Shown here: positions 1 through 15,628 of the stretch, piece after piece
Layout of the letters: each line of letters begins with the position of its first letter
How positions within the stretch are numbered: the stretch's first letter is position 1
Origin: a virus
Taxonomy: Duplodnaviria; Heunggongvirae; Uroviricota; Caudoviricetes
IMG/VR virus record: IMGVR_UViG_2579778633_000006
Reading direction: 5' to 3' (one strand)
Length of the DNA: 16,004 nt
Translations under genes and position numbers: made by a program
Notes under the pieces: model-generated
Seen by the model: only the letters and a program-made list of their open reading frames with translations
Databases searched by the model: none
Told to the model about the DNA's origin: nothing

Positions 1-474
1 ATGTACAGTCCGGTACAAATAGCCAATAAATTCATAACGTTGGGAAACCAACATCATAATCCTCTGACCCACATGCAACTGCAGAAGCTTACTTATATTG
101 CCCATGGTTACTATTTAGCATTAACAGGTAAGCCTTTGCTCAATGAATGTGTCTCCGCGTGGAAGTACGGTCCAGTTATTCCTGGAATGTACGATGCTTT
201 CAAAGACTATGGGAATAAACCTGTTACGAATGTAGCAGTAGCTCCTTTTGGTGGCATCGTTACTATGGATCCGCAAGCAGAGAGCATTATCGGGGCTGTT
301 TATAAGTTTTACGGCTCGAAAAATGGAATTGAGTTATCAACTCTAACTCATATGCCAGGTACGCCTTGGTCACAAGCTTATAATGGTATTGGCTCGTCGA
401 TCATCTCAAATGATGCGATCAAGGCTTATTATCATGATTTATTGAATAACCGACAGCAATGTCAGGGCCTCTGA
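1..474 (+). CDS. Panacea-domain (DUF4065, SocA/GepA-like) protein; putative antitoxin-type component
   Basis: 157-aa ORF starting at ATG at position 1. Motifs recalled from DUF4065 proteins: LQKLTYIAHGYYLA, AWKYGPV, THMPGTPW. Followed after a 22-nt gap by a co-oriented ORF. Confidence 0.65.
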   Translation: MYSPVQIANKFITLGNQHHNPLTHMQLQKLTYIAHGYYLALTGKPLLNECVSAWKYGPVIPGMYDAFKDYGNKPVTNVAVAPFGGIVTMDPQAESIIGAVYKFYGSKNGIELSTLTHMPGTPWSQAYNGIGSSIISNDAIKAYYHDLLNNRQQCQGL

Positions 475-496
475 AAAAGTAATATTCAGGGATGAC

Positions 497-1045
497 ATGT
501 CTCATAATTCAGATATCTATAAACTGATCGGAGCGGCCGCAGGTGTTGAAAATGGTCGCTCTGAAGCATCCTTAAACTCTACTGACAGTCAAGAGCAGGC
601 TTTTGAATCCGCATTTGAGCCGTCTAATCATGAACGCGATGATGATTCTTCTTCAGAAAATAAGGCTATTCTGGAGGAAGAAGAGTTTGGTTCTAATACT
701 GGTGCATTGCATGAGTTTATGCAGCAGAACAGAATGGACAGTCTTCAAGCTCAGCTTGATATGCTCAAATCACAAGTACGGGATAAGATAGCTGACGCAA
801 CTGGTAAAGAAATAGACAATGAGCTCCGGACAAAAATGGCATCATTCACGGTTTGGTTTATGTCGTGTTGGTGCTTATTCGTTGTCGCAATGTTTACATC
901 GTTTCTTATTGCACATGAAGGAAAGGCTCCAGTTGAAGCGATCGTTGCATTACTAGGTACAAGTACAATTAGTATTGTTGGTTTGGTTGGTTTCGTTGTT
1001 AGTGGATTGTTCAAATCAAGAAAAGATAGTGATAAAGAAAAATAA
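497..1045 (+). CDS. Hypothetical small membrane protein (acidic N-terminal region, two C-terminal TM helices); candidate toxin partner of the upstream Panacea protein
   Basis: 182-aa ORF with AGGGA 6 nt upstream of ATG. C-terminal hydrophobic stretches FTVWFMSCWCLFVVAMFTSFLI and AIVALLGTSTISIVGLVGFVVSGLF. Ends at a hairpin terminator. Confidence 0.5.
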   Translation: MSHNSDIYKLIGAAAGVENGRSEASLNSTDSQEQAFESAFEPSNHERDDDSSSENKAILEEEEFGSNTGALHEFMQQNRMDSLQAQLDMLKSQVRDKIADATGKEIDNELRTKMASFTVWFMSCWCLFVVAMFTSFLIAHEGKAPVEAIVALLGTSTISIVGLVGFVVSGLFKSRKDSDKEK

Positions 1046-2353: not shown

Positions 2354-3178
2354 TCAGGCGGTGAAAGTACCAATAAAGGTTTCTACTTTGCTGTCTTTGA
2401 ATTTCTCAACAAGCAGATCACGAAATTCGTTAGCCATTTCTTCCTGTACCGCTTCCAGCTGAATAATGCGCAGAACCAGTACAGGACGATCGCCAGTGAT
2501 AATGCTGAGGCGTAATTTAAACGGACGTTCTTTCAGACCTTCAAACGGAACGCATTTAAATTCAAATGCCACTGGCATAATGTCTTTGGTCTTCGCTTCG
2601 ACAGACTCCATCAGGGAGCGTTTGCCGCTGAAGTCATTATCTTCAAAATCAGCGGTCTGGTTCGCTTCAATTGTGATTTTACGGATCGCCGCAGCCGCTT
2701 TGGTTGCCTGAATGGCGTCACCATTAGCATCAAAGCCCACAAGGTAGTCGGCCCAGTCTTCAATCCATTCTGCCAGTGACTTCTGGGAGTTACGCTCGCC
2801 GTTAACAGACAACAGAGCAGAGAACGGTGCTGTCTTTTTCAGTTTGAGAGTGGCGGTGTTATCTGCGTGACCTGGTTCATCAATAGTACCCAGGTTAAGC
2901 ACACTGACGGCACGCATATTATCGGCATCGATAAAGCAGCGGGTGCCTTCATCTGCAAGAACTTTAGAATAACGGGTAAAGTCATCGATGCTGGCAGTGG
3001 AAAGCGCACCACGGAAACGGAAGCGATTTAAATTAAATTTTTCCAGATCATGAATGCGGAAATTCTCAGGCAATGCCACAGCATCGGCACCAATCTTACT
3101 GATAATTTCATTAACACCCTGAGCAGAAATAAGGGCATGGATTTGATTAATTGCGGTTGCGTCTAAGTTCTGAGACAT
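2354..3178 (-). CDS. YfdQ-like (DUF2303) prophage protein
   Basis: 274-aa ORF with E. coli-typical codon usage; GAGGA RBS ~7 nt upstream of ATG at 3176-3178; length and N-terminus match my recollection of CPS-53 YfdQ-family proteins. Confidence 0.5.
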
Positions 3179-3243: not shown

Positions 3244-3606
3244 TTAACGACCTGCTGCGCGGAGTTTTCCGTCAGGTTCACCGGCAAGAGTCAGTAATTG
3301 TCCCTGGTCCTCCTGCAGAATAGTCAGGCGACCACCGCGATTGACATACATCGGCGTTTCGGTGGTGTCTTCTTCGGAAATTTTCCCGCGGTTAGTCGGG
3401 CGAACATATGAGAGTTTGTGTTTGATTTTCACACGGTTCTCATCAAATGGTTCGATTTCCAGGTTGAGTGAGACCTTACCTTTGGTTTTCGTGTTCATCA
3501 CACCGGAAGCGACTTCACTGAGAACTGCGCCGATTTTGGTTTCAAATACGCCGCCGTCCAGCTCCCCGATAAATGCCTGCACATCAGTACTGCGTTCGCT
3601 AGCCAT
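3244..3606 (-). CDS. Conserved prophage protein of unknown function (120 aa)
   Basis: Start placed at internal ATG 3604-3606 (MASERSTDVQ...) because GAGGAG (3614-3619, minus strand) sits 7 nt upstream; the longer 197-aa ORF extension has implausible Cys/His/Arg/Pro-rich composition and runs through strong hairpins. Confidence 0.5.
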   Translation of the reverse strand: MASERSTDVQAFIGELDGGVFETKIGAVLSEVASGVMNTKTKGKVSLNLEIEPFDENRVKIKHKLSYVRPTNRGKISEEDTTETPMYVNRGGRLTILQEDQGQLLTLAGEPDGKLRAAGR

Positions 3607-3654
3607 TTTGCTGCTCCTCATCATATCGACCCTGCAAGGTCGGTTGGTTTCTCC

Positions 3655-3789
3655 ACAAAACAGAGAAGAACACCTGCGGTGGCAGCCGCCCGGATGGATT
3701 GGGTTATGAGCCCGTCGTCCGGTGATGCTCTTCTCTGTTTTGTAAAAAGAGCGGTACCAGCCGGAAGCAAGTGTACAAACTGGTACCGC
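3655..3789 (-). other. Tandem stem-loops in the long leader between candidate OL operators and the first leftward gene (possible structured RNA or antitermination-type element)
   Basis: 16-nt inverted repeat with 1 mismatch (3655-3670 ACAAAACAGAGAAGAA vs 3728-3743 CTCTTCTCTGTTTTGT), followed by a perfect 10-bp inverted repeat GCGGTACCAG(3751-3760)/CTGGTACCGC(3780-3789). No convincing ORF in the 666-bp gap 3607-4272. Confidence 0.3.
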
Positions 3790-4189
3790 CAAAGCAGTGG
3801 CTGTTGTGGTGGGGTTGTCACTCAGGCGTATGGTCAACCTGACAATCCGGTGTCCTCAACGGGGAAAGAGTAACCCCGCCATACTTACCGCCGCGCCATT
3901 TCGCGGATTACCACAACGCTGAGAGCACTTAGCCAGTTACGGCACCACACTTTGTCGCGGTTCCATAAATGCCCTCATCGTTGCACCCTGGTCTCTTCCC
4001 AGGCGTCAAACCGGATCGCCACGCTGGTTAGGCGTCTTATCAGCATCATCATTGACTTGCACATTCCGGCTACCTGGTTTGTTTGCCCGAGCAAGGAGTG
4101 GATTGTCCCCTTTAACGTCCCCAGACCGCTAACGACGCATGTGCCATACGCCGTGTTACAACCAAATTTAGTTTAATCTTGCCTGTGTT

Positions 4190-4272: not shown

Positions 4273-4947
4273 TTAGGCCTTTATTTTGTATCTTCTTGGT
4301 TTTCCTGAGAAAATCACTGTACCAATTATAGAGCAATTACCGTTGATCTTAATGTAAGGTTCAGGCCAGTTTGGGTTTAATGCTTTGAGGTAACGCTGTG
4401 TTCCATCTTCTATCAACCGCTTGAAGGTGGTTTCGCCTGTATCGTGCATCAATGCAATAACGTCGTCACCGTGGCAGGCAGGGACTTCAGGATCAACAAA
4501 AATCATGTCTCCCGGGCGGTACTCATCAATCATTGAATCACCAATCACCCGCAAGATATAAGTCATTTCGCCACAGGGTACAGGGCAGGGATAAGTTTCT
4601 GCTGTGCTCAAATCAACCTCAGAATAGCCAACTTCTTTCCATGCTCCGGCCTGTACCCATGATATGACAGGGACTAACGTTATTTGTTTGTTAGTGATTG
4701 AAACGTCAGGTTTTTTTGTGATGTTCGTTGTCTGGTGTTCTTGATCAAGCCATCCGACAGGCAGGTCGAAACATTTTTCGATGTGCCGTGCCATGCTGTC
4801 ACCGATATTTTTAGTTGCACCATCTCCCATAAACCTGCTGGTCTGGGTTGGCTCGCGATCAATCATGGTGGCAAAGGAAGAATTCCCGCCAACACCATCT
4901 CTCAGTTTTCTGGCGTTAGACCGCCGGATGTCATGGACTGTTTTCAT
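4273..4947 (-). CDS. CI-type phage repressor (N-terminal HTH, C-terminal LexA-like S24 peptidase domain)
   Basis: 224-aa ORF; C-terminal VIGDSM (Ser nucleophile context) and downstream FKRL (Lys) typical of autocleaving CI/LexA-family repressors; divergent from a Cro-like gene. Confidence 0.85.
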   Translation of the reverse strand: MKTVHDIRRSNARKLRDGVGGNSSFATMIDREPTQTSRFMGDGATKNIGDSMARHIEKCFDLPVGWLDQEHQTTNITKKPDVSITNKQITLVPVISWVQAGAWKEVGYSEVDLSTAETYPCPVPCGEMTYILRVIGDSMIDEYRPGDMIFVDPEVPACHGDDVIALMHDTGETTFKRLIEDGTQRYLKALNPNWPEPYIKINGNCSIIGTVIFSGKPRRYKIKA

Positions 4948-5269: not shown

Positions 5270-5833
5270 ATGAGGCTAACCGTGGGTAAGCATCACTGGA
5301 AAGTAGAAAAACAGCCTGAGTGGTACGTGAAAGCTGTCAGAAAAACTATCGCGGCGTTGCCGGGGGGTTACGCTGAAGCTGCTGAGTGGCTGGATGTAAC
5401 AGAGAACGCTTTATTCAACCGCCTTCGTGCAGATGGCGATCAGATTTTCCCGCTGGGATGGGCAATGATTTTACAGCGCGCGGCTGGCACTCACTACATT
5501 GCGGATGCTGTCGCACAGTCTGCTGGTGGGGTGTTTGTATCGCTTCCTGAAATTGAGGAAGTAGAGAACGCCGATATAAACCAGCGCCTGCTGGAAGTCA
5601 TCGAACAGATCGGGAGTTACTCAAAGCAGATTCGTTCGGCAATCGAAGATGGGGTAGTGGAGCCACACGAGCAGACAGCAATTAATGATGAGTTGTATCT
5701 GTCAATTTCGAAGCTCCAGGAGCATGCAGCACTGGTCTACAAAATCTTTTGCGCTCCAGAAAAGAGTGACGCCCGCGAGTGTGCAGCTCCGGGCGTCGTG
5801 GCGTTTTGTGTCTGTGGAGAAACTAACGCATGA
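5270..5833 (+). CDS. Hypothetical early-operon protein in the CII-like position (possible regulator); start may be GTG at 5282
   Basis: 187-aa ORF directly after cro-like gene; stop overlaps next start (ATGA at 5830-5833). Function not recognisable by eye. Confidence 0.45.
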   Translation: MRLTVGKHHWKVEKQPEWYVKAVRKTIAALPGGYAEAAEWLDVTENALFNRLRADGDQIFPLGWAMILQRAAGTHYIADAVAQSAGGVFVSLPEIEEVENADINQRLLEVIEQIGSYSKQIRSAIEDGVVEPHEQTAINDELYLSISKLQEHAALVYKIFCAPEKSDARECAAPGVVAFCVCGETNA

Positions 5834-6666
5834 ACAGTTTAACGGCAAATAACCGTTTGTCGCAACAGCTGGTGGTCAGTGTCGCTGAACACCTGTTGTT
5901 ACGGCATGAATGCAGATTACCAAATCACCTGGCTGTAAGTAACCACAGAGAACTTTACCTGACTGTGGGGGGCGAGTTGTGCAGGAACTTAACCGCTGGT
6001 TTCGTGACGGAAGAGGGCTTTATGTCCATGTTATTCGTTGGGAGCCAGAAACACAGCGCGTTATCTATCTTCGCAAAGACTACCCGCATGAGTGCTTTAG
6101 TCCTTTGTGGAAATTCAGGCGTGATTTTGTTGAGTGTGAAGGACCACCAGCACATTGATTCTGCCATTCCGGGACGTTACACTGTTCAGGCACCTTATAA
6201 AGCGGGTGCCGGGATTGGCGTCCTGGAAATGTTATCGGCGATATATGACGCGCCAGCGTCTTTTTTATCGTCTGCGTCTGTGCACACCCAAATTATGGTG
6301 GGCTGGACGGGGGCACCGAAAGGTGCGCCGGTTTCCGATAACGCCGGTTACGCCAACCCCGTTCAGTTCACCACCAGCGAAATTGGCGTTTCCGGTGGTG
6401 AAGGTAATTCACTGTTATCGGAGGCTGCCATCATGGCTACTGTCCCAGCCCTCACTCGTCTGAATGATGAAGACTTACATAAACTCAGTTATGTAACAAC
6501 TGCACTACGTGCTCTGCGCAAGGTAACTCTTTCGGATCCGCAGGCGCATCAAGTTCTGGTAGAAACCCTTCTTAACTTGCAGGCTGAACGTATTCGTCTG
6601 GCGGATAAGGCTAATTTTCATATTCACCGTCTCCTGAATATCAGCGGAGGGCATCGTCATGCTTAA
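5830..6666 (+). CDS. Hypothetical protein (278 aa)
   Basis: Translationally coupled at both ends (ATGA overlap at 5830; ATG 6659 overlaps stop 6664-6666, AGCGGAGGG RBS); E. coli-like codon usage. No recognisable motif. Confidence 0.45.
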   Translation: MNSLTANNRLSQQLVVSVAEHLLLRHECRLPNHLAVSNHRELYLTVGGELCRNLTAGFVTEEGFMSMLFVGSQKHSALSIFAKTTRMSALVLCGNSGVILLSVKDHQHIDSAIPGRYTVQAPYKAGAGIGVLEMLSAIYDAPASFLSSASVHTQIMVGWTGAPKGAPVSDNAGYANPVQFTTSEIGVSGGEGNSLLSEAAIMATVPALTRLNDEDLHKLSYVTTALRALRKVTLSDPQAHQVLVETLLNLQAERIRLADKANFHIHRLLNISGGHRHA

Positions 6667-6895
6667 TCCGTTGATCCTCAATATTTGCCGTTTGCTTCAG
6701 CGTAAAAAAACATCAATTCCTACAGTTGGGCAGTGGTACACCACACCTGCAGGGCATGTTCTACGTGTTAGCCTGGTTGACCGTGAATGCCAGAAGGTGA
6801 TTTGTGAACCGCTGGGCCGTAATTACCGCGTCAGTATGCCGCTTATAGCCTTTCGCTCCGGAAAAAACATGAAGCATCTCGGAGGTGCAGCATGA
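6659..6895 (+). CDS. Hypothetical small protein (78 aa)
   Basis: Coupled to flanking genes (ATGA overlap with next gene at 6892-6895; GGAGG at 6881-6885 serves the next start). Confidence 0.35.
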   Translation: MLNPLILNICRLLQRKKTSIPTVGQWYTTPAGHVLRVSLVDRECQKVICEPLGRNYRVSMPLIAFRSGKNMKHLGGAA

Positions 6896-7710
6896 GTATG
6901 GAGCTGATGGTTAAAGCGATGAAAATTCGAGTGGGTAATCCATTGCGAAAACTGGTTCTGATCAAGCTGGCTGATAATGCCAGCGATCAGGGTGAGTGCT
7001 GGCCCAGCTACCAGCATATTGCTGACCAGTGCGAGATTAGCAAACGTTCTGTGATGAATCATATTGCGGCCCTTTGTGAGTCCGGGCTGGTAAAAAAAGT
7101 CACCCGGAAAGGTGAAAAAGGTAACTCAAGTAATATCTATCTCCTTCATCTGGATGGTGCAGGAGATTCACTAGGGGGTAGTGCAAATAATTCACTATCT
7201 GGTGCAGCAAATTCACCAGGTAGTGCAGGAGTTGCACCAGGGGGTAGTGCAGGAGATTCACCCAGAACCAGTCACTCTTTTGAACCAGTCAAAGAACCAG
7301 TCAATGAACCAATAGCTGTTGGTGCATCAGTTGATGAGTCCGTGCGAGTTCGTTCAAACCGACCGGAATACTCTCCGGAGTTTGAGCAGGCATGGCTGGT
7401 ATATCCCAAACGTGCTGGTGGCAATTCAAAATCTGCAGCCTTCAAAGCCTGGAAAGCCCGTTTGAATGAGGGGGTAAACCCCGAAACCATGCTGGAAGGT
7501 GTGAAACGCTACGCGGGCTGGGTATCTGCGATGGGTAACAGCGGCACACAATTTGTGAAACAGGCTGTCACGTTCTTTGGTCCGGATCGTCATTTCGAAG
7601 AATCCTGGGAAGTTCCTGCGGTATCTGCAGCCAGACGCGAGGACCCGTACTTCAAAGCCAGTTACGACAACGTGGACTACAGCCAGATCCCGGCAGGATT
7701 CAGGGGGTGA
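6892..7710 (+). CDS. Putative replication protein with N-terminal HTH (winged-helix, HTH_36-like) domain and Gly/Ser-rich linker
   Basis: N-terminal LRKLVLIKLADNASDQGECWPSYQHIADQCEISKRSVMNHIAALCESGLV resembles the HTH found in phage replication initiators; low-complexity linker; C-terminal Trp/Tyr-rich domain. Confidence 0.5.
   Translation: MSMELMVKAMKIRVGNPLRKLVLIKLADNASDQGECWPSYQHIADQCEISKRSVMNHIAALCESGLVKKVTRKGEKGNSSNIYLLHLDGAGDSLGGSANNSLSGAANSPGSAGVAPGGSAGDSPRTSHSFEPVKEPVNEPIAVGASVDESVRVRSNRPEYSPEFEQAWLVYPKRAGGNSKSAAFKAWKARLNEGVNPETMLEGVKRYAGWVSAMGNSGTQFVKQAVTFFGPDRHFEESWEVPAVSAARREDPYFKASYDNVDYSQIPAGFRG
7156..7263 (+). repeat. In-frame imperfect DNA repeats encoding a Gly/Ser/Ala-rich linker
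   Basis: GTGCAGGAGATTCAC occurs at 7157-7171 and 7247-7261; AGGGGGTAGTGCA at 7173-7185 and 7239-7251; encodes AGDSLGGSANNSLSGAANSPGSAGVAPGGSAGDSP. Confidence 0.5.
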
Positions 7711-8141
7711 TCATGAGTCTTTTGAATGAAGTTCAGAAATACATTGAAGCCCATCCGGGGTGTACTTCCGGAGACATTGCGGATGCTTTTGCAGGTTACT
7801 CACGGCAGCGCGTTCTGCAGTCAGCAAGCAAGTTACGTCAGAGTGGTCGTGTGGCTCACCGTTGTGAAGGGGATACACGCAGACATTTCCCGCGCCTGAC
7901 TGAGAGAGCGCAGGAGGCGGAACCGCAACCAGTTCGTGAAACCAGACCTGTGCGCAATTTCTATGTCGGCACTAACGATCCCCGGGTGATTTTGTGCCTG
8001 ACCCGCCAGGCGGAAGAACTGGAGTCGAGGGGCTTATACCGTCGTGCTGCAACGGTGTGGATGGCGGCATTCCGTGAAAGCCACTCCCAGCCAGAGCGAA
8101 ACAATTTTCTTGCGCGTCGTGAAGGCCGCAAAAACGTCTGA
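7707..8141 (+). CDS. PerC-family-like transcriptional regulator (C-terminal GLYRRAATVW motif), N-terminal winged-helix-like extension
   Basis: 144-aa ORF with ATGA overlap to upstream gene; C-terminal LESRGLYRRAATVWMAAF resembles the LE..GLWRRAA.RW signature I recall for PerC/Pch proteins. Confidence 0.45.
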   Translation: MIMSLLNEVQKYIEAHPGCTSGDIADAFAGYSRQRVLQSASKLRQSGRVAHRCEGDTRRHFPRLTERAQEAEPQPVRETRPVRNFYVGTNDPRVILCLTRQAEELESRGLYRRAATVWMAAFRESHSQPERNNFLARREGRKNV

Positions 8142-10536
8142 GACGAATGCGGATAACAGCGCACAGGCGGCAGCGGCCTCACAAACTGCATCGGCAAACT
8201 CCGCGACAGCAGCCAAAAAATCAGAAACCAACGCGAAAAATAGCGAGGCAGCAGCAAAGAGCAGCGAAACTAATGCTAAATCCAGTGAAACAAACGCGGC
8301 GAAATCTGCAGCGGACGCACTTAATTATCGCAACCAGGCACAATCCGTTGTTGGTAACAATATTGGTCTTGGTGAAGTTGCTATGACCTGCACTGATATC
8401 TCTGTTGAGCCATCAGGTTATATTGGATTTATCAGGATTTACATCTCAGCGAAAGGTTATCCATCAGTAGCGTCTAGTGCCGGGGATAATCTTATTTCTG
8501 GTTATATAGTTAGATCAGAAGTGTCAACAAAAAGATATTCCGGTCTATTTGTTGGTTCAGATACAAAATCATTGTATTCGTACATTTACAGCCAAAGTTC
8601 TGGCCCGCAATGGATACGTCATACCCGCAGAGATGAATTAAGCCGCTTTGGTCAAAATGAATCAACAACTCGTATGTATGGTCCAACTGGTGATCGTTTC
8701 TTTGAAATCCATACTAACGGGAGTTGGGGGGTTTATGATTCTTCTTCTGGACAATGGTCTCCGTTAGGTTTAGCCCAGGGTGGTACTGGTGGAAGAACTA
8801 TCGAGCAAGCACGTGCGAACTTGCGGGTAATGTATGAGCAAAAAGCTGGCCTTGCTAATACTGACCTAAACACCCTTACCGGTGAATATTCTGGTTTCTA
8901 TCAACAACCAACGAGCGCTTACGCAACAGAAGAATTAAATTACCCAATCGGTCTGGCGGGCGCTTTAATAGTGCTCCAAACGAGAGCCAACACTGCTTCT
9001 TCCTGCGTTCAGGTGTACCACCCTTATAATAATCCGGGAATTACTTATAGACGAATATATGAAGGAGGTAGCGGTACCTGGTCTGAATGGAAGAGAGATG
9101 TATCAACAGAAAGGGTTGAAGAGGGAAAAGAAACAACTTACGTATATTCTACGTATTCTTCAGGCGCACCACGCTTACAGGTTTCCAAATCTGGTTTGTG
9201 GGGTTGTCATAATGGCACTGGCTGGTTGCCATTAGCTGTTGGGCAAGGAGGTACAGGTGCGACAACAGTAGAAGATGCGCGAAACAACTTAAGTCTTGGC
9301 GAAAGTAGCGCAGTTAAATTTAAAAACCTTACTTTAACCGAAGCGCTCGACACGACATTAGGACTGCTTACAAAAACAGGACGAGACTGGAACGCTCAGC
9401 ATACTGATAACGTCGACAAATTTAGACCAATTGCAGGCAGTACAAACGGCCCGGCAGGCTCTATGGTTCTTGGCGGCATTCATGTTCAATTTAGTAAAAA
9501 TTATGCTGTGCAGTTCGGAGGCCGCAATTCCGGTTTTTGGGGAAGAACAATTGAAAATGGAACGACGCAGGAATGGAAGAAATTACTAACAGTAGACGAT
9601 CTCAATTCATCTACCGCTCTTGCTGTCAGGTCATTAACCACATCTAACCCGATAAAATCTGGCGGAGGGCGGATTGATGTCCTTGGAAGCACGTCAGACT
9701 ATAGCAAAATGGATTGCTTTGTACGTGGGTTTGATAGCACCGGTAATTCTCTCGCGTGGGCGTTGGGTTCATCAGTCGGCGTAAGTAAGATGCTGTCGCT
9801 AAAAAATTTCTTTAGCGGAGCTGAGATACTGCTAAATGGTAATGACGGCGCGGTTCAACTCAAAACAGGTGCTGTTAACGGTGCTAAAGCGCAGGCGCTC
9901 ACTATCAACAAGGATGAGGTTAACTCAACTGTTGATTTAACTCTTACAAAACAAACAGGGACTGGCAATCGTTTTGTTTTACAGAACTTAGGTAATACAG
10001 AACTACCATTTGCTGTCAAGGTGTGGGGTTCAGGTGATCGACAAAACGTTTTTGAGGTTGGAACGTCTGCCGCGTATCTGTTTTATGCTCAAAAAACATC
10101 GTCAGGTCAGCTGTTTGATGTAAACGGTGCTATTAACTGTACAACACTGAATCAGTTATCAGACCGCGAGCTGAAAGACAATATTCAGATTATCAGTGAC
10201 GCAACCGAAGCTATCCGTAAAATGAACGGGTACACCTACACACTTAAGGAAAACGGACTGCCTTACGCTGGTGTTATTGCACAGGAAGCAATGGAGGCAA
10301 TACCGGAAGCGGTAGGCTCATTCACTCATTACGGTAAAGAGTTGCAGGGACCAACGGTTGACGGCAATGAATTACGTGAAGAAACACGTTATCTGAATGT
10401 TGACTACGCCGCCGTGACGGGCTTACTTGTTCAGGTCGCCCGTGAAACAGATGATCGCGTTACCGCGCTGGAAGAAGAAAACGCAGAATTAAAACAAAGA
10501 TTATCTGCAATTGAGGCGGCGCTTGCCTCTAAATAA
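8125..10536 (+). pseudogene. Tail-fibre gene remnant, 5'-truncated (no start codon in the homologous region), with intact C-terminal intramolecular-chaperone-like domain
   Basis: KTSETNA/KSSETNA repeats as in lambda Stf-type fibres; two GQGGTGA-T-E-AR-NL tail-fibre repeats; C-terminal SDRELKDNI...NGYTY...AELKQRL resembles the autocleaving chaperone domain of fibres/tailspikes. Fibre homology begins in the +1 frame inside the last codons of the PerC-like gene; the only in-frame start upstream is a GTG at 8044 translating unrelated sequence. Confidence 0.6.
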
Positions 10537-10973: not shown

Positions 10974-12350
10974 CTATGATATTCCTGAAATATCCTCTTC
11001 AAGCTCTTTTACTGATTTCGCAATTTTAAATTTAAACTTCCTCTCTATTTCACTATTGCTAAGTTTTTTTTCCTTCTCTTTACCTATCCACATAGAAACA
11101 AGTTCTCGTTTCTGAGATATATGTAGATTGTCAAAGTTAGGTATGTATTTAAAAGTCTCCGCTCTACCTCTGCGGAGTTCATAGAAAGTTTTAATCAAAG
11201 ATTTTGGTTTTATTTCTGATGAAAGGCCGAATCGGCGGATAAGATTATTGATAGTATGATTAACAGAGCGAAGTTGAGCTGTTGAGGTTATTTGTGAGAA
11301 GTACGATACCCATCCCAATCGTTTACCTTCAAACACACATCCCGTAATTCTGAGATTTAGTTTCCACTGACAATATGCAACAGCTCGTTCTTTATCACGC
11401 TTACTTTTAGCTTGTAGTAGAGCGTGCCTATATGCAGTAAAAATTTTTGCTAAGGATGACTCAAATCTAAGAATGCTCTCATGTTTTATCAATAATTCTC
11501 GATTTTCTATGTGGTATCCCAAAAAGTTAAAACTTTCATCCAAACTGCCTACTTTGGATTTTGAGTTCTCTTCATTTAATGGATGTGGGTTTAAATTTAA
11601 TGATTGAAGCTTATCAATGATATGAGAAGCTATTTTTGTTGCTTGATATTTTGGTGTTAAAATAAGAATGTCATCAACGTATCGCATGTACCATATGTCA
11701 TGCATTTTATTGATTTCATCATCGAAATTAGATAGTGATATTTCAGCTAAAATGTTTGATATCGCTAATCCCTGAGGTACTCCTCTGGTATTATTAGGGA
11801 TACCTTTGCTTCCTGTGGTTCCACTTACAGTAGGCACGATTAATGATGATGTTATTAACTGTCTAATTTCTTTTTTTCTAATTTTATTTTTTATTGCATT
11901 AATTATCAATTTATGTTCAATTGAAGGATAGAAACTTTTAAGATCTATTTTTGCATATTCAGCATATAGACTGTTGTTTAATGCTTCTTTCAATGAGTCA
12001 ATTACTGTATGTGGTAGTTTTAATCTGGACTTAGGATATATTTCCGTAAGGCATTCACAGAGAGCTCTAAGAGTAATTCTGTCCCTAGCAGTTGGTATGG
12101 AAATCTGTCTGGGTGTAGAGTTAGCGCCTTTAGATATTAATTTTTCTTTATATGCTGTAAATTTGTAATTGCCAGAATTAACCTTTTCAAAAATGAAAGT
12201 GATCTCATTTTTTATTGTCAAATCAAGTTTTGATGGGCGAATCCGATCTATGCCAATCGCTCCTGATTCTTTGATTTTTTCAGAGTATACTTTTAGAAGA
12301 TTTTTTTTCGAGAATGACTTTTTAAAAATTCTGCTTGCAGTCATAGTCAA
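10974..12350 (-). CDS. Reverse transcriptase (bacterial defence-type RT; retron-like vs UG/Abi-like unresolved), 458 aa with C-terminal extension
   Basis: RT motifs in order: GIDRIRP; RQISIPTARDRITLRAL; IDLKSFYPSIEH; GVPQGLAISNILAEI; YMRYVDDILIL (YxDD catalytic box); FNFLGYHI. AT-rich gene; start overlaps upstream TM-protein gene by ~29 nt. Confidence 0.85.
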   Translation of the reverse strand: MTMTASRIFKKSFSKKNLLKVYSEKIKESGAIGIDRIRPSKLDLTIKNEITFIFEKVNSGNYKFTAYKEKLISKGANSTPRQISIPTARDRITLRALCECLTEIYPKSRLKLPHTVIDSLKEALNNSLYAEYAKIDLKSFYPSIEHKLIINAIKNKIRKKEIRQLITSSLIVPTVSGTTGSKGIPNNTRGVPQGLAISNILAEISLSNFDDEINKMHDIWYMRYVDDILILTPKYQATKIASHIIDKLQSLNLNPHPLNEENSKSKVGSLDESFNFLGYHIENRELLIKHESILRFESSLAKIFTAYRHALLQAKSKRDKERAVAYCQWKLNLRITGCVFEGKRLGWVSYFSQITSTAQLRSVNHTINNLIRRFGLSSEIKPKSLIKTFYELRRGRAETFKYIPNFDNLHISQKRELVSMWIGKEKEKKLSNSEIERKFKFKIAKSVKELEEDISGIS

Positions 12351-12873
12351 TCCAAAGATATATTAATGGGAGTATATAAAGTGCGGCAGTAATAAATATT
12401 CGAAGTAATATCCATAAAATAACAATTATTTTTTCTTTTTGTGTGGGGATCCTCGTCTTAAGTCCAACTTGAGTTACCCTTGAAATTTTATCATCTATGT
12501 CACGGTGATTCTCAACCTCATTGAGCAAATTAAAATATTTTTCTTTCTGTTCAAGAGATAACTGTTGACTGGTGGTAATGTCAAAATAGAGTCGCTGTAG
12601 TGCAATATAATTCCTTCTCATGGCTATTGCTCGACCACGAAAATCTAGGTTAGATACGATCAGAGAAATACCCAGTAGAGCCACTGAAAGTATCGCCGCA
12701 ACGACATCTGTATTATCTCCTAGAACCTTTGGAAATCGCAACGTTACAATTGAAAGTACCGCACTCAATATAGCATACCAAACGAGGATAAATTGAGAGT
12801 GTTTTTCAAGCCATTCTAGTCGATGGTGCGCTTGGATACGTGCTTTATATGTAAACCAAATATTGTCATGCAT
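12322..12873 (-). CDS. Multi-TM small protein, SLATT-like (putative membrane effector of the RT system)
   Basis: 183-aa ORF; AGGA RBS 5-8 nt upstream of ATG 12871-12873; hydrophobic helices FILVWYAILSAVLSIVTL, VVAAILSVALLGISLIVS and C-terminal IIVILWILLRIFITAALYILPLIYLW separated by a charged helical region; 3' end overlaps RT start. Confidence 0.6.
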   Translation of the reverse strand: MHDNIWFTYKARIQAHHRLEWLEKHSQFILVWYAILSAVLSIVTLRFPKVLGDNTDVVAAILSVALLGISLIVSNLDFRGRAIAMRRNYIALQRLYFDITTSQQLSLEQKEKYFNLLNEVENHRDIDDKISRVTQVGLKTRIPTQKEKIIVILWILLRIFITAALYILPLIYLWIDYDCKQNF

Positions 12874-13095: not shown

Positions 13096-13344
13096 TTAAT
13101 GAACAAACCACTCGTCAGCAGACTCCCAGGTATCTTTCAGAGTCTCCTGAACAAAAGTTTTAGCTGAATCTTTATCAGCGGTGCGCGTAACAGAAAGGCC
13201 ATCGTTGCTGGTGGCTTTTACGATCACTTCTACATCGTCATAACGTTTACTGATGCGTCGGGTTAATTCTTCCTTTAACGCATCCACAGCACCGGTTGGC
13301 ATTTTAGTCATTTTTTCTTTGGCTATGCAGATTTCAATACGCAT
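13096..13344 (-). CDS. dinI: DinI-family protein (SOS-inducible RecA modulator homolog)
   Basis: 82-aa ORF; MRIE..IAK...GA.DAL..EL.RRI...LSV....QET...WESADEWFV match the E. coli DinI pattern as I recall it; two LexA boxes immediately upstream. Confidence 0.8.
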
Positions 13345-13404: not shown

Positions 13405-14502
13405 TCAAGAGGTCTTATTTCTGCTCCTTTGGAGTTCTTCAAAACGATTATGTAAAGATTTCGGATACAGTTCGGTATATACCTGCCATAGCACGTTTAA
13501 TGAACGATGCCCTGTAACCTGAGCGACTTCCTCAATACTAAAACCAGCCTCAAATAAGCGACTTGCCCCTTCTCTACGCAAATCATGGTATCTCAGATCT
13601 TTAATACCTAATTTGCTTCTTACCCTCTGAAATCCTGCGGTAACAGAAGTGCTGTTATATGGAAAAATGAATTCTGATTTTTTGGGTTGTCGCTGGACGA
13701 TATCCCAGGCTTCCCCAAGCAAGGCAACTTTCATATGGTTGCCTTCCTTTTTACGTGGATCTTTCCTGTCTCTTACTAGTATAGATTTTTGTTCCTGGTC
13801 GAGATCTTCCCATCGTAACCGGCATACTTCTCCGATTCGCATACAGGACCACACAGAAAATTTGAGGATATCAACGAACGGAATTTTTGAGCATTTATGA
13901 GTAGATCGTTGTTGAAGGCCTTCAATGAGCATGTTCAGTTCATCAGATGCTGGTCTACGATTACGACGGTTTGATTTACCAATCAAACCGAGTTTAAGTA
14001 GATATGGACGAGCGCTTTTCGCCGGGTTTGATGTGTAATTGATTCCGTATACAGGTTTTGCCGCATCCAGAACACTGCCAAGATAACTAACATCGTGGCT
14101 GACTGTTGCTGGGCCTGCACCAGCGTTGTTTCTTAGCCTGCAATGTTCAATTACGTCATTTTCTGTCAGTTCAGATAGTTTGATCGCGGAGATGTCACTA
14201 TCCATAAGCAGTTCCAGCACATATCTTTTAGTACGGCCTGCTTTACCTCCGGCATTTGGGTCATTTAAATATTTGTGTAGTAAGTCACGGACTGTAAGTC
14301 CGTCAACAGCATTTGATGATGGAATGCCATATAGATCTAATTCCATCACTTTCTGTGCGCCCCATGTTTTGGCATGAGCATGTTTAGGGAATGTTTTGCT
14401 TTCCCTGTAAGTGATAACACCTTTTTCTTTGATAATCACATTACAGCGATAGCGTGGTGTGCCATCGGATTTTAGTCGTTTCTCTATGTTATAGTACGCC
14501 AT
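13405..14502 (-). CDS. int: Tyrosine-type site-specific integrase (phage integrase family), adjacent to and divergent from dusA
   Basis: 365-aa ORF; C-terminal catalytic signatures MRIGEVCRLRWEDLD (Arg), YHDLRREGASRL (HxxR), GHRSLNVLWQVYTEL (His/Trp and Tyr). Confidence 0.9.
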   Translation of the reverse strand: MAYYNIEKRLKSDGTPRYRCNVIIKEKGVITYRESKTFPKHAHAKTWGAQKVMELDLYGIPSSNAVDGLTVRDLLHKYLNDPNAGGKAGRTKRYVLELLMDSDISAIKLSELTENDVIEHCRLRNNAGAGPATVSHDVSYLGSVLDAAKPVYGINYTSNPAKSARPYLLKLGLIGKSNRRNRRPASDELNMLIEGLQQRSTHKCSKIPFVDILKFSVWSCMRIGEVCRLRWEDLDQEQKSILVRDRKDPRKKEGNHMKVALLGEAWDIVQRQPKKSEFIFPYNSTSVTAGFQRVRSKLGIKDLRYHDLRREGASRLFEAGFSIEEVAQVTGHRSLNVLWQVYTELYPKSLHNRFEELQRSRNKTS

Positions 14503-14590: not shown

Positions 14591-15628
14591 ATGCACGATA
14601 ATCCTGAAACACAGAAAACTAATCAAACCAGCGTGATGCCTGAAAAAACTGGCGCTTACTGGAGTTCTCGGTTTAGCATTGCTCCTATGCTCGACTGGAC
14701 GGACAGACATTGCCGCTATTTCTTGCGTCTGCTTTCCCGCAATACGTTGCTGTATACCGAAATGGTGACCACAGGGGCGATTATTCACGGTAAAGGTGAT
14801 TACCTGGCGTACAGTGAAGAAGAACATCCGGTAGCGTTGCAACTCGGCGGTAGCGATCCGGCGGCGCTGGCACAGTGTGCGAAGCTGGCAGAAGCGCGTG
14901 GATATGATGAGATCAACCTGAATGTCGGCTGCCCGTCTGACCGGGTGCAGAACGGCATGTTTGGTGCGTGTCTGATGGGTAATGCGCAGCTGGTTGCCGA
15001 CTGCGTGAAAGCGATGCGCGATGTGGTGTCGATTCCAGTGACGGTGAAAACGCGTATTGGCATCGATGACCAGGACAGCTATGAATTTCTCTGCGATTTC
15101 ATCAACACCGTTTCCGGCAAAGGCGAGTGTGAGATGTTTATCATCCACGCACGTAAAGCCTGGCTTTCGGGGTTAAGCCCGAAAGAAAACCGTGAAATCC
15201 CGCCGCTCGATTATCCGCGTGTGTATCAACTGAAGCGTGACTTTCCGCATCTGACAATGTCGATTAACGGTGGTATCAAGTCGCTGGAAGAGGCCAAAGC
15301 ACACCTGCAACATATGGATGGCGTGATGGTCGGGCGCGAGGCGTATCAGAATCCGGGTATTCTGGCGGCGGTAGACCGGGAGATCTTTGGTTCCTCGGAT
15401 ACCGATGCCGATCCAGTGGCGGTAGTGCGCGCCATGTATCCGTACATTGAGCGTGAACTCAGCCAGGGGACGTATCTCGGCCATATTACCCGGCATATGT
15501 TGGGCTTGTTCCAGGGTATTCCTGGCGCGCGGCAGTGGCGGCGTTATTTAAGTGAAAATGCCCATAAAGCGGGTGCAGACATTAATGTGCTGGAACACGC
15601 GCTCAAACTGGTGGCGGATAAGCGTTAA
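14591..15628 (+). CDS. dusA: tRNA-dihydrouridine synthase A
   Basis: 345-aa ORF with conserved Dus-family sequence ([30 protein letters not shown], catalytic Cys region); followed by pspG as in E. coli. The 5' end may be element-derived; true start may lie downstream of 14591. Confidence 0.9.

Follow-up and report, generated by a model that had tools for sequence, protein, structure and literature searches.

The first two genes of the window (the whole stretch of DNA analyzed, 16,004 nucleotides) encode an antitoxin, PanA, and a membrane-acting toxin, PanT, and with a probability of about 0.93 they are the PanAT(Esc. col.) type II toxin–antitoxin operon of the lambdoid Escherichia coli prophages that integrate in dusA, the "type II" assignment being, for the E. 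coli pair, an extrapolation from other PanAT pairs. The pair is a known one that earlier work has described and named, validated by experiment, and annotated in GenBank; the original prediction of a toxin–antitoxin-like module with a membrane-acting toxin is correct and not new. Many complete E. coli chromosomes, for example that of APEC O78, match positions 1–1400 of the window with 100% identity; in APEC O78, the product of the first gene is WP_000287252.1, annotated as "Panacea domain-containing protein", and that of the second is WP_000019186.1, annotated as "hypothetical protein". Among the validated pairs in Table 1 of Kurata et al. 2022 (PNAS 119:e2102212119, PMC8832971) is one composed of the toxin WP_000019185.1 and the antitoxin WP_000287252.1, with the membrane as mode of action. 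It is named PanA/PanT Esc. col. and comes from E. coli STEC O31, and for this locus the dataset of the same study gives the gene order as A|T, the gap as 22 nt, the toxin cluster as T3, and the status as "TA".

The proteins used for comparison were those of the genome STEC1588, which encodes exactly WP_000019185.1. The window PanA is identical to the published antitoxin at 157 of 157 residues. The window PanT, which is the allele WP_000019186.1, agrees with the tested toxin at 176 of 182 positions (97%), and the six differences (window residue, position, tested residue) are E61A, V130A, A131G, T134V, A144P, and S178G. Apart from these six positions, the two pairs have in common the antitoxin-then-toxin order, the intergenic distance, and the slot in a dusA prophage. 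By this identity, its charged N terminus, and its C-terminal transmembrane (TM) helices, the window PanT is placed in toxin cluster T3. The same genes are labeled "PanA antitoxin" and "PanT toxin" in the GenBank record PV340566.1 (Escherichia phage PhiR47_1). The positions of all the features are collected in Table 1.

Table 1. Features of the panAT module and of the rest of the prophage remnant (nucleotide positions are those of the window; aa, residues of PanT)
Feature	Position	Strand	Description and evidence
panA (ORF1), antitoxin	1–474	+	157 aa; Panacea (DUF4065) domain alone, without an N-terminal HTH
Intergenic spacer	475–496	+	22 nt; read from the sequence
panT (ORF2), toxin	497–1045	+	182 aa; hydropathy, charge counts, phrog match, identity to PanT
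panT acidic variable N-terminal region	about aa 1–65		
panT conserved helix-prone segment	about aa 66–112		
panT TM1	about aa 114–140 (nt 836–916)		Hydropathy
panT TM2	about aa 145–172 (nt 929–1012)		Hydropathy
Hairpin	1042–1065	both	Stem 10–12 bp, loop 4 nt; between the convergent panT and excisionase gene
Excisionase-like gene (PrtN/PyocinActivator family)	1079–1348	−	PF11112, E 2.8e-23; phrog_1300 "excisionase", E 7.5e-40
AT-rich ORF	1385–2221	−	
YfdQ	2354–3178	−	
YfdP	3244–3837	−	
S24-family (CI-like) repressor	4273–4947	−	
CII-like protein	5270–5833	+	
Ash	5830–6666	+	
Replication protein	6892–7710	+	
Tail fibre	8044–10536	+	
UG17 reverse transcriptase	10974–12350	−	458 aa; PADLOC RT_UG17, E 1e-158
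SLATT effector (SLATT_5)	12322–12873	−	183 aa; two TM helices; RTasSLATT, E 1.5e-56
DinI-like protein	13096–13344	−	
Integrase	13405–14502	−	

That ORF1 is of the DUF4065/Panacea type, as had been proposed from its motifs, was borne out by the profile search: Pfam found PF13274 (SocA_Panacea) with an E-value of 5.9e-18 and 66.3 bits, against a gathering cut-off of 25.7, over positions 1–112 of the 113 in the profile. In addition, phrog_1281 matched the protein with an E-value of 6.6e-49. The GPV signature is present as G57-P58-V59 (nt 169–177), in the context W54-K55-Y56-G57-P58-V59 (nt 160–177), and this motif is critical for neutralization by PanA (Kurata et al. 2022). ORF1 thus combines the two features that define a PanAT antitoxin, namely a Panacea domain above the gathering threshold and the GPV motif, and the co-oriented, tightly spaced two-gene architecture of PanAT is also found here. 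The window starts at the ATG of panA, and the PanA that it encodes is devoid of a DNA-binding domain.

The Panacea domain is shared with SocA, the antitoxin of the type VI system SocAB of Caulobacter crescentus, and the NCBIfam model SocA_antitoxin matches ORF1 with an E-value of 1e-27. PanA could accordingly hand PanT over to ClpXP as a proteolytic adaptor, instead of acting by binding alone, and Kurata et al. (2022) state that one mechanism does not have to preclude the other. For the window pair we consider such a route very improbable. ORF1 is not a SocA equivalog, since it reaches 97 bits with the equivalog model NF047745, whose cut-off is 190. SocB is not a membrane protein, and the window PanT presumably bears no resemblance to it. 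SocA is a ClpXP adaptor and SocB blocks replication, whereas the toxin encoded in the window is a membrane protein with two TM helices, for which NCBIfam holds no family. Furthermore, neutralization by PanAs has been found to be independent of both ClpXP and Lon (Kurata et al. 2022), which argues against the adaptor; on this independence and on the equivalog score, a SocA-type adaptor function was rejected.

The composition of ORF2 is as it had been read originally, with an acidic N-terminal half followed by two C-terminal TM helices. Its residues 1–110 contain 24 D+E and 9 K+R, and when Kyte-Doolittle hydropathy was scored in 19-residue windows, the two hydrophobic segments given in Table 1 as TM1 and TM2 exceeded the cut of 1.6. 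Three of the six differences from the tested allele (V130, A131, and T134) are within TM1. A144, a residue of the loop between the two TM helices, is found only in the window-type allele, and P144 in all the others compared. The family phrog_13343, which has no functional annotation, matches ORF2 from end to end (E 2.9e-111), while phrog_26171 matches aa 79–177 only. No significant family was found for ORF2 in Pfam or NCBIfam; 7tm_6 and DUF2975 appeared below threshold, with E-values of about 0.04–0.07, and were discarded as noise. When a genome set with one genome per species was scanned with PanT, no relative was obtained, the E. coli representative in that set evidently being without the prophage.

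Small toxins that insert into the membrane and depolarize it are also known from the type I systems, in HokB and TisB. An antisense RNA, rather than a protein antitoxin, controls these toxins, which have a single TM helix and are much shorter than PanT. HokB was used as a comparator by Kurata et al. (2022).

The published phenotypes of the pair are those of a membrane toxin and its antitoxin. PanT Esc. col. is toxic in E. coli BW25113 and is neutralized by its cognate PanA; in metabolic labeling, it shuts down transcription, translation, and replication indiscriminately (Kurata et al. 2022, Fig. 5). Strong depolarization was seen with DiSC3(5) and permeabilization with SYTOX Green, which the authors of that study read as the formation of large pores. 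Toxicity and rescue would be expected of the allele WP_000019186.1 of the window, which is 97% identical to the allele assayed. Free PanT would then insert into the inner membrane, the membrane potential would collapse, and pores able to pass SYTOX Green would be formed, as is the case for the 97% identical allele, and the arrest of transcription, translation, and replication would be the result of this damage to the membrane. PanA, a stand-alone Panacea domain, would neutralize the toxin, as its identical counterpart does.

As to how PanA does so, stable PanA:PanT complexes have been obtained by pull-down for five PanAT pairs other than that of E. coli (Kurata et al. 2022), and it is because these complexes come from other pairs that "type II" is an extrapolation here. 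For PanT(T12/D11):PanA of Bartonella choladocola (apis), a structural model and mutants indicate that the Panacea core contacts the N-terminal region of the toxin and a short helix preceding the TM segments, and the substitutions Y56A and H120E abolish neutralization (Ernits 2023). The Bartonella pair is compositionally similar to that of the window, with a stand-alone Panacea antitoxin and a toxin that depolarizes and permeabilizes the membrane; its PanT, however, falls in a separate toxin cluster in the clustering of the authors, homology to T3 is only suspected, and the likeness is one of published descriptions. From these data we infer that direct binding between PanA and PanT is the most likely route of neutralization: the Panacea core in the vicinity of Y56-GPV would bind directly to the cytoplasmic N-terminal region or to the pre-TM helix of PanT, and the binding would either keep PanT from the membrane or block the assembly of the pore.

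ORF2 is small, phage-encoded, and pore-forming, with two TM helices, as would also be expected if it were a holin, or a superinfection-exclusion membrane protein, next to a phage protein unrelated to it. We regard this explanation, under which there would be no toxin–antitoxin system, as extremely unlikely. ORF2 lies beside attL and the excisionase gene, far from a lysis cassette; panT has been kept where the lysis genes have been lost, and it is strictly coupled to PanA. Moreover, toxicity and rescue have been demonstrated experimentally (Kurata et al. 2022). A role of ORF2 as a holin or in lysis is contradicted by its position, its persistence in the remnant, and this published toxicity-neutralization assay.

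The tight linkage and common orientation of the two genes of the toxin–antitoxin operon agree with the original reading of the sequence, the gap being exactly 22 nt and both genes being on the + strand. Within the gap there is a Shine-Dalgarno-like AGGGA at 488–492, 4 nt before the ATG of panT. The hairpin downstream, which overlaps the stop codon of ORF2, was terminator-like on both strands in a terminator scan, with minimum free energies of −12.7 kcal/mol (+ strand; z-score −2.8) and −14.3 kcal/mol (− strand; z-score −3.6), and it is probably the terminator of both transcripts. It had been described beforehand as a strong bidirectional terminator. The bidirectional part of this description holds, but "strong" is somewhat generous on the + strand, because the T-run past the stem is interrupted there (CCATAGTTTTAGTTT) and the stem has just four G-C pairs; on the − strand, the T-run is good. 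The convergent excisionase-like gene is outside the panAT module and marks its inner boundary.

Upstream of the module, a sigma-70 promoter with all 12 of the consensus positions (TTGACA-16-TATAAT) is directed toward panA in the 100% identical genomes (5816–5843 of the E. coli locus L002), about 160–185 bp before position 1 and outside the window. The promoter is exactly conserved in 18 loci. No exact match to it was found in the locus L039 or in the divergent locus L040, both of which include the upstream sequence. Judging from its sequence, panAT would be transcribed from this consensus promoter. Read-through from the promoter of the displaced host dusA may add to the expression of panAT; this is possible in the lysogen because the displaced 5′ fragment of dusA, presumably with its promoter, points the same way. 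Repeats of the form ACAGTG/CACTGT flank the sigma-70 promoter and could be either arm-type sites of the integrase at attL or operators.

The two genes were found together nearly without exception. A match to the 1,075-bp pair was obtained in 79 of 5,426 complete E. coli genomes, with both genes covered in every case (79/79), and the layout of dusA fragment, panA, panT, and xis was constant in every E. coli locus opened. Among the 31 IMG/VR contigs that encode a relative of PanT, 30 have PanA directly upstream, and the remaining one is truncated, beginning at the first base of panT. Of the 37 related loci with both genes, 36 have them 21–22 nt apart. The exception is L040 (positions 436–1564, IMGVR_UViG_2869445338_000004), a divergent pair in which PanA is 76% and PanT 64% identical to those of the window and which is preceded by a DinI-like gene and followed by genes for a Hin-type invertase and for tail fibres. 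Because this divergent pair has been kept in a different phage context, panA and panT travel as a unit. Its PanT has a rewritten acidic N terminus, and the stretch from "SNTGALHEFMQQNRMDSLQAQLDML" through both TM helices is well conserved, a pattern that agrees with phrog_26171 matching only the C-terminal part of the protein. The co-conservation across the E. coli genomes, the viral contigs, and L040 is what was anticipated for a self-contained two-gene unit.

Within this unit, variation was concentrated in the toxin. Of the 37 loci with PanA, 33 encode exactly the same protein; a base-by-base comparison of six loci showed up to nine nucleotide changes in panA, every one of them silent. PanT, on the other hand, has 1–6 amino-acid changes in the closest loci and is down to 92% identical in others. 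The adjacent xis gene is common to about 746 E. coli records, compared with the 79 that carry PanAT, so that panAT is accessory cargo, present in about one in ten of these prophages. In one relative, phage PhiR40_1 (PV340560.1, L008 222–1212), the slot between attL and xis holds instead a pair annotated as YafM antitoxin and YafO toxin, which suggests that the slot is a hotspot for the exchange of toxin–antitoxin cassettes. Because the pair found there is a different one, the slot seems to select for toxin–antitoxin function in general.

The window comprises almost all of a prophage remnant of roughly 15 kb located in dusA. In the 100% identical genomes, 305 bp separate panA from the end of a displaced 5′ fragment of the host dusA (105 nt; attL), which lies upstream; the module is indeed at the edge of the island, as had been supposed, even though the edge itself is not visible inside the window. 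At the other end, a 5′ end of dusA supplied by the phage, about 80% identical to the host fragment, is fused to the rest of the gene at window position 14591. When the two copies were compared (window 14591–14700 and L002 5592–5696), homology ended near nt 100, and the crossover core is placed there for this reason. The integrase gene and the restored dusA, upstream of which it lies, are divergent, with 88 bp between them. The remnant lacks nearly all the structural genes and the lysis genes; panAT is intact. The pair is also present in three phage genome records (PhiR47_1, 1720a-02, and phiSTEC1575-Stx2k), two of which are from STEC strains and one of which is named as an Stx2k phage. In the dataset of Kurata et al. 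(2022), the row GCF_000281775.1 flags the STEC O31 locus as "NotPhage"; unlike this flag, the context of panAT in the window is clearly that of the remnant of a lambdoid prophage inserted in dusA.

At the attR end, the gene of the UG17 reverse transcriptase overlaps that of the SLATT_5 effector beside the DinI-like gene and the integrase, the arrangement of a DRT-type anti-phage pair, and the remnant carries a membrane-effector module at each of its ends. The reverse transcriptase of APEC O78 is broken into two ORFs, with an IS2 inserted nearby. The AT-rich ORF next to the excisionase gene (29% GC, 260–278 aa, with a hydrophobic N terminus) is matched from end to end by phrog_14996, which is without functional annotation, and had no significant match in Pfam, NCBIfam, or PADLOC. 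It sits where sibling phages have genes for exonuclease VIII, ea22, and eaE, and it may be another accessory cargo gene.

Two candidates for the biological role of the pair are prophage retention and defense of the abortive-infection type. In the latter, a proposal about role that does not conflict with a toxin–antitoxin identity, PanA would be lost to an invading phage through inactivation, titration, or a block of its synthesis, and PanT would depolarize the cell before the invader had finished its cycle. It is a possible role, at tentative strength. The pair is an accessory cassette at the end of a prophage, which is typical for defense "morons", it persists in a degraded 15-kb remnant, and the reverse transcriptase and SLATT effector at the other end form a defense pair. 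Panacea-linked toxSAS/CapRel toxins also defend against phages, and toxin–antitoxin and defense systems have been argued to form a continuum (Ernits 2023). Against this role, neither PanA nor PanT matches in PADLOC (no families at E ≤ 0.01 among the defense models of PADLOC-DB v2). Our literature search found no published phage-challenge data for the E. coli PanAT pair, and on the later function of the pair it found nothing beyond Kurata et al. (2022) and Ernits (2023); the sole paper found that names PhiR47_1 concerns the SNIPE nuclease, and PanAT is absent from it.

As an addiction or retention cassette, a role that we consider somewhat doubtful, a long-lived PanT would outlast PanA and penalize the loss of the prophage or of its remnant. 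The intactness of the pair in a remnant stripped of nearly all its structural genes is in favor of retention, as are the YafM/YafO pair in the same slot of the sibling phage and the invariance of the PanA protein despite up to nine silent nucleotide changes. Addiction effects of chromosomal toxin–antitoxin systems are often weak. Besides, neutralization by PanAs without the need of Lon or ClpXP (Kurata et al. 2022) does not favor a labile antitoxin.

As a discovery, the finding carries little weight; it is useful as a calibration, since a true toxin–antitoxin module was recognized from the raw sequence alone. What is added is that lambdoid phages integrating in dusA carry the validated E. coli PanAT as prophage cargo at their attL end. 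Further additions are its survival in a 15-kb remnant, the combination of an invariant PanA with a variable PanT, and the different toxin–antitoxin pair that a sibling phage has in the same slot, and these observations on context are concrete handles on the biological role of PanAT. Taken together in a speculative and rather doubtful proposal, they would make the attL–xis interval an exchangeable toxin–antitoxin slot, expressed in the lysogen from the sigma-70 promoter and by read-through from dusA, in which PanAT would serve abortive infection or retention. That PanT has diversified while PanA has stayed constant would, on this view, result from an arms race with triggers or inhibitors encoded by phages. 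If true, a slot for the exchange of toxin–antitoxin cassettes at attL, with a role in defense or retention, would be of moderate interest.
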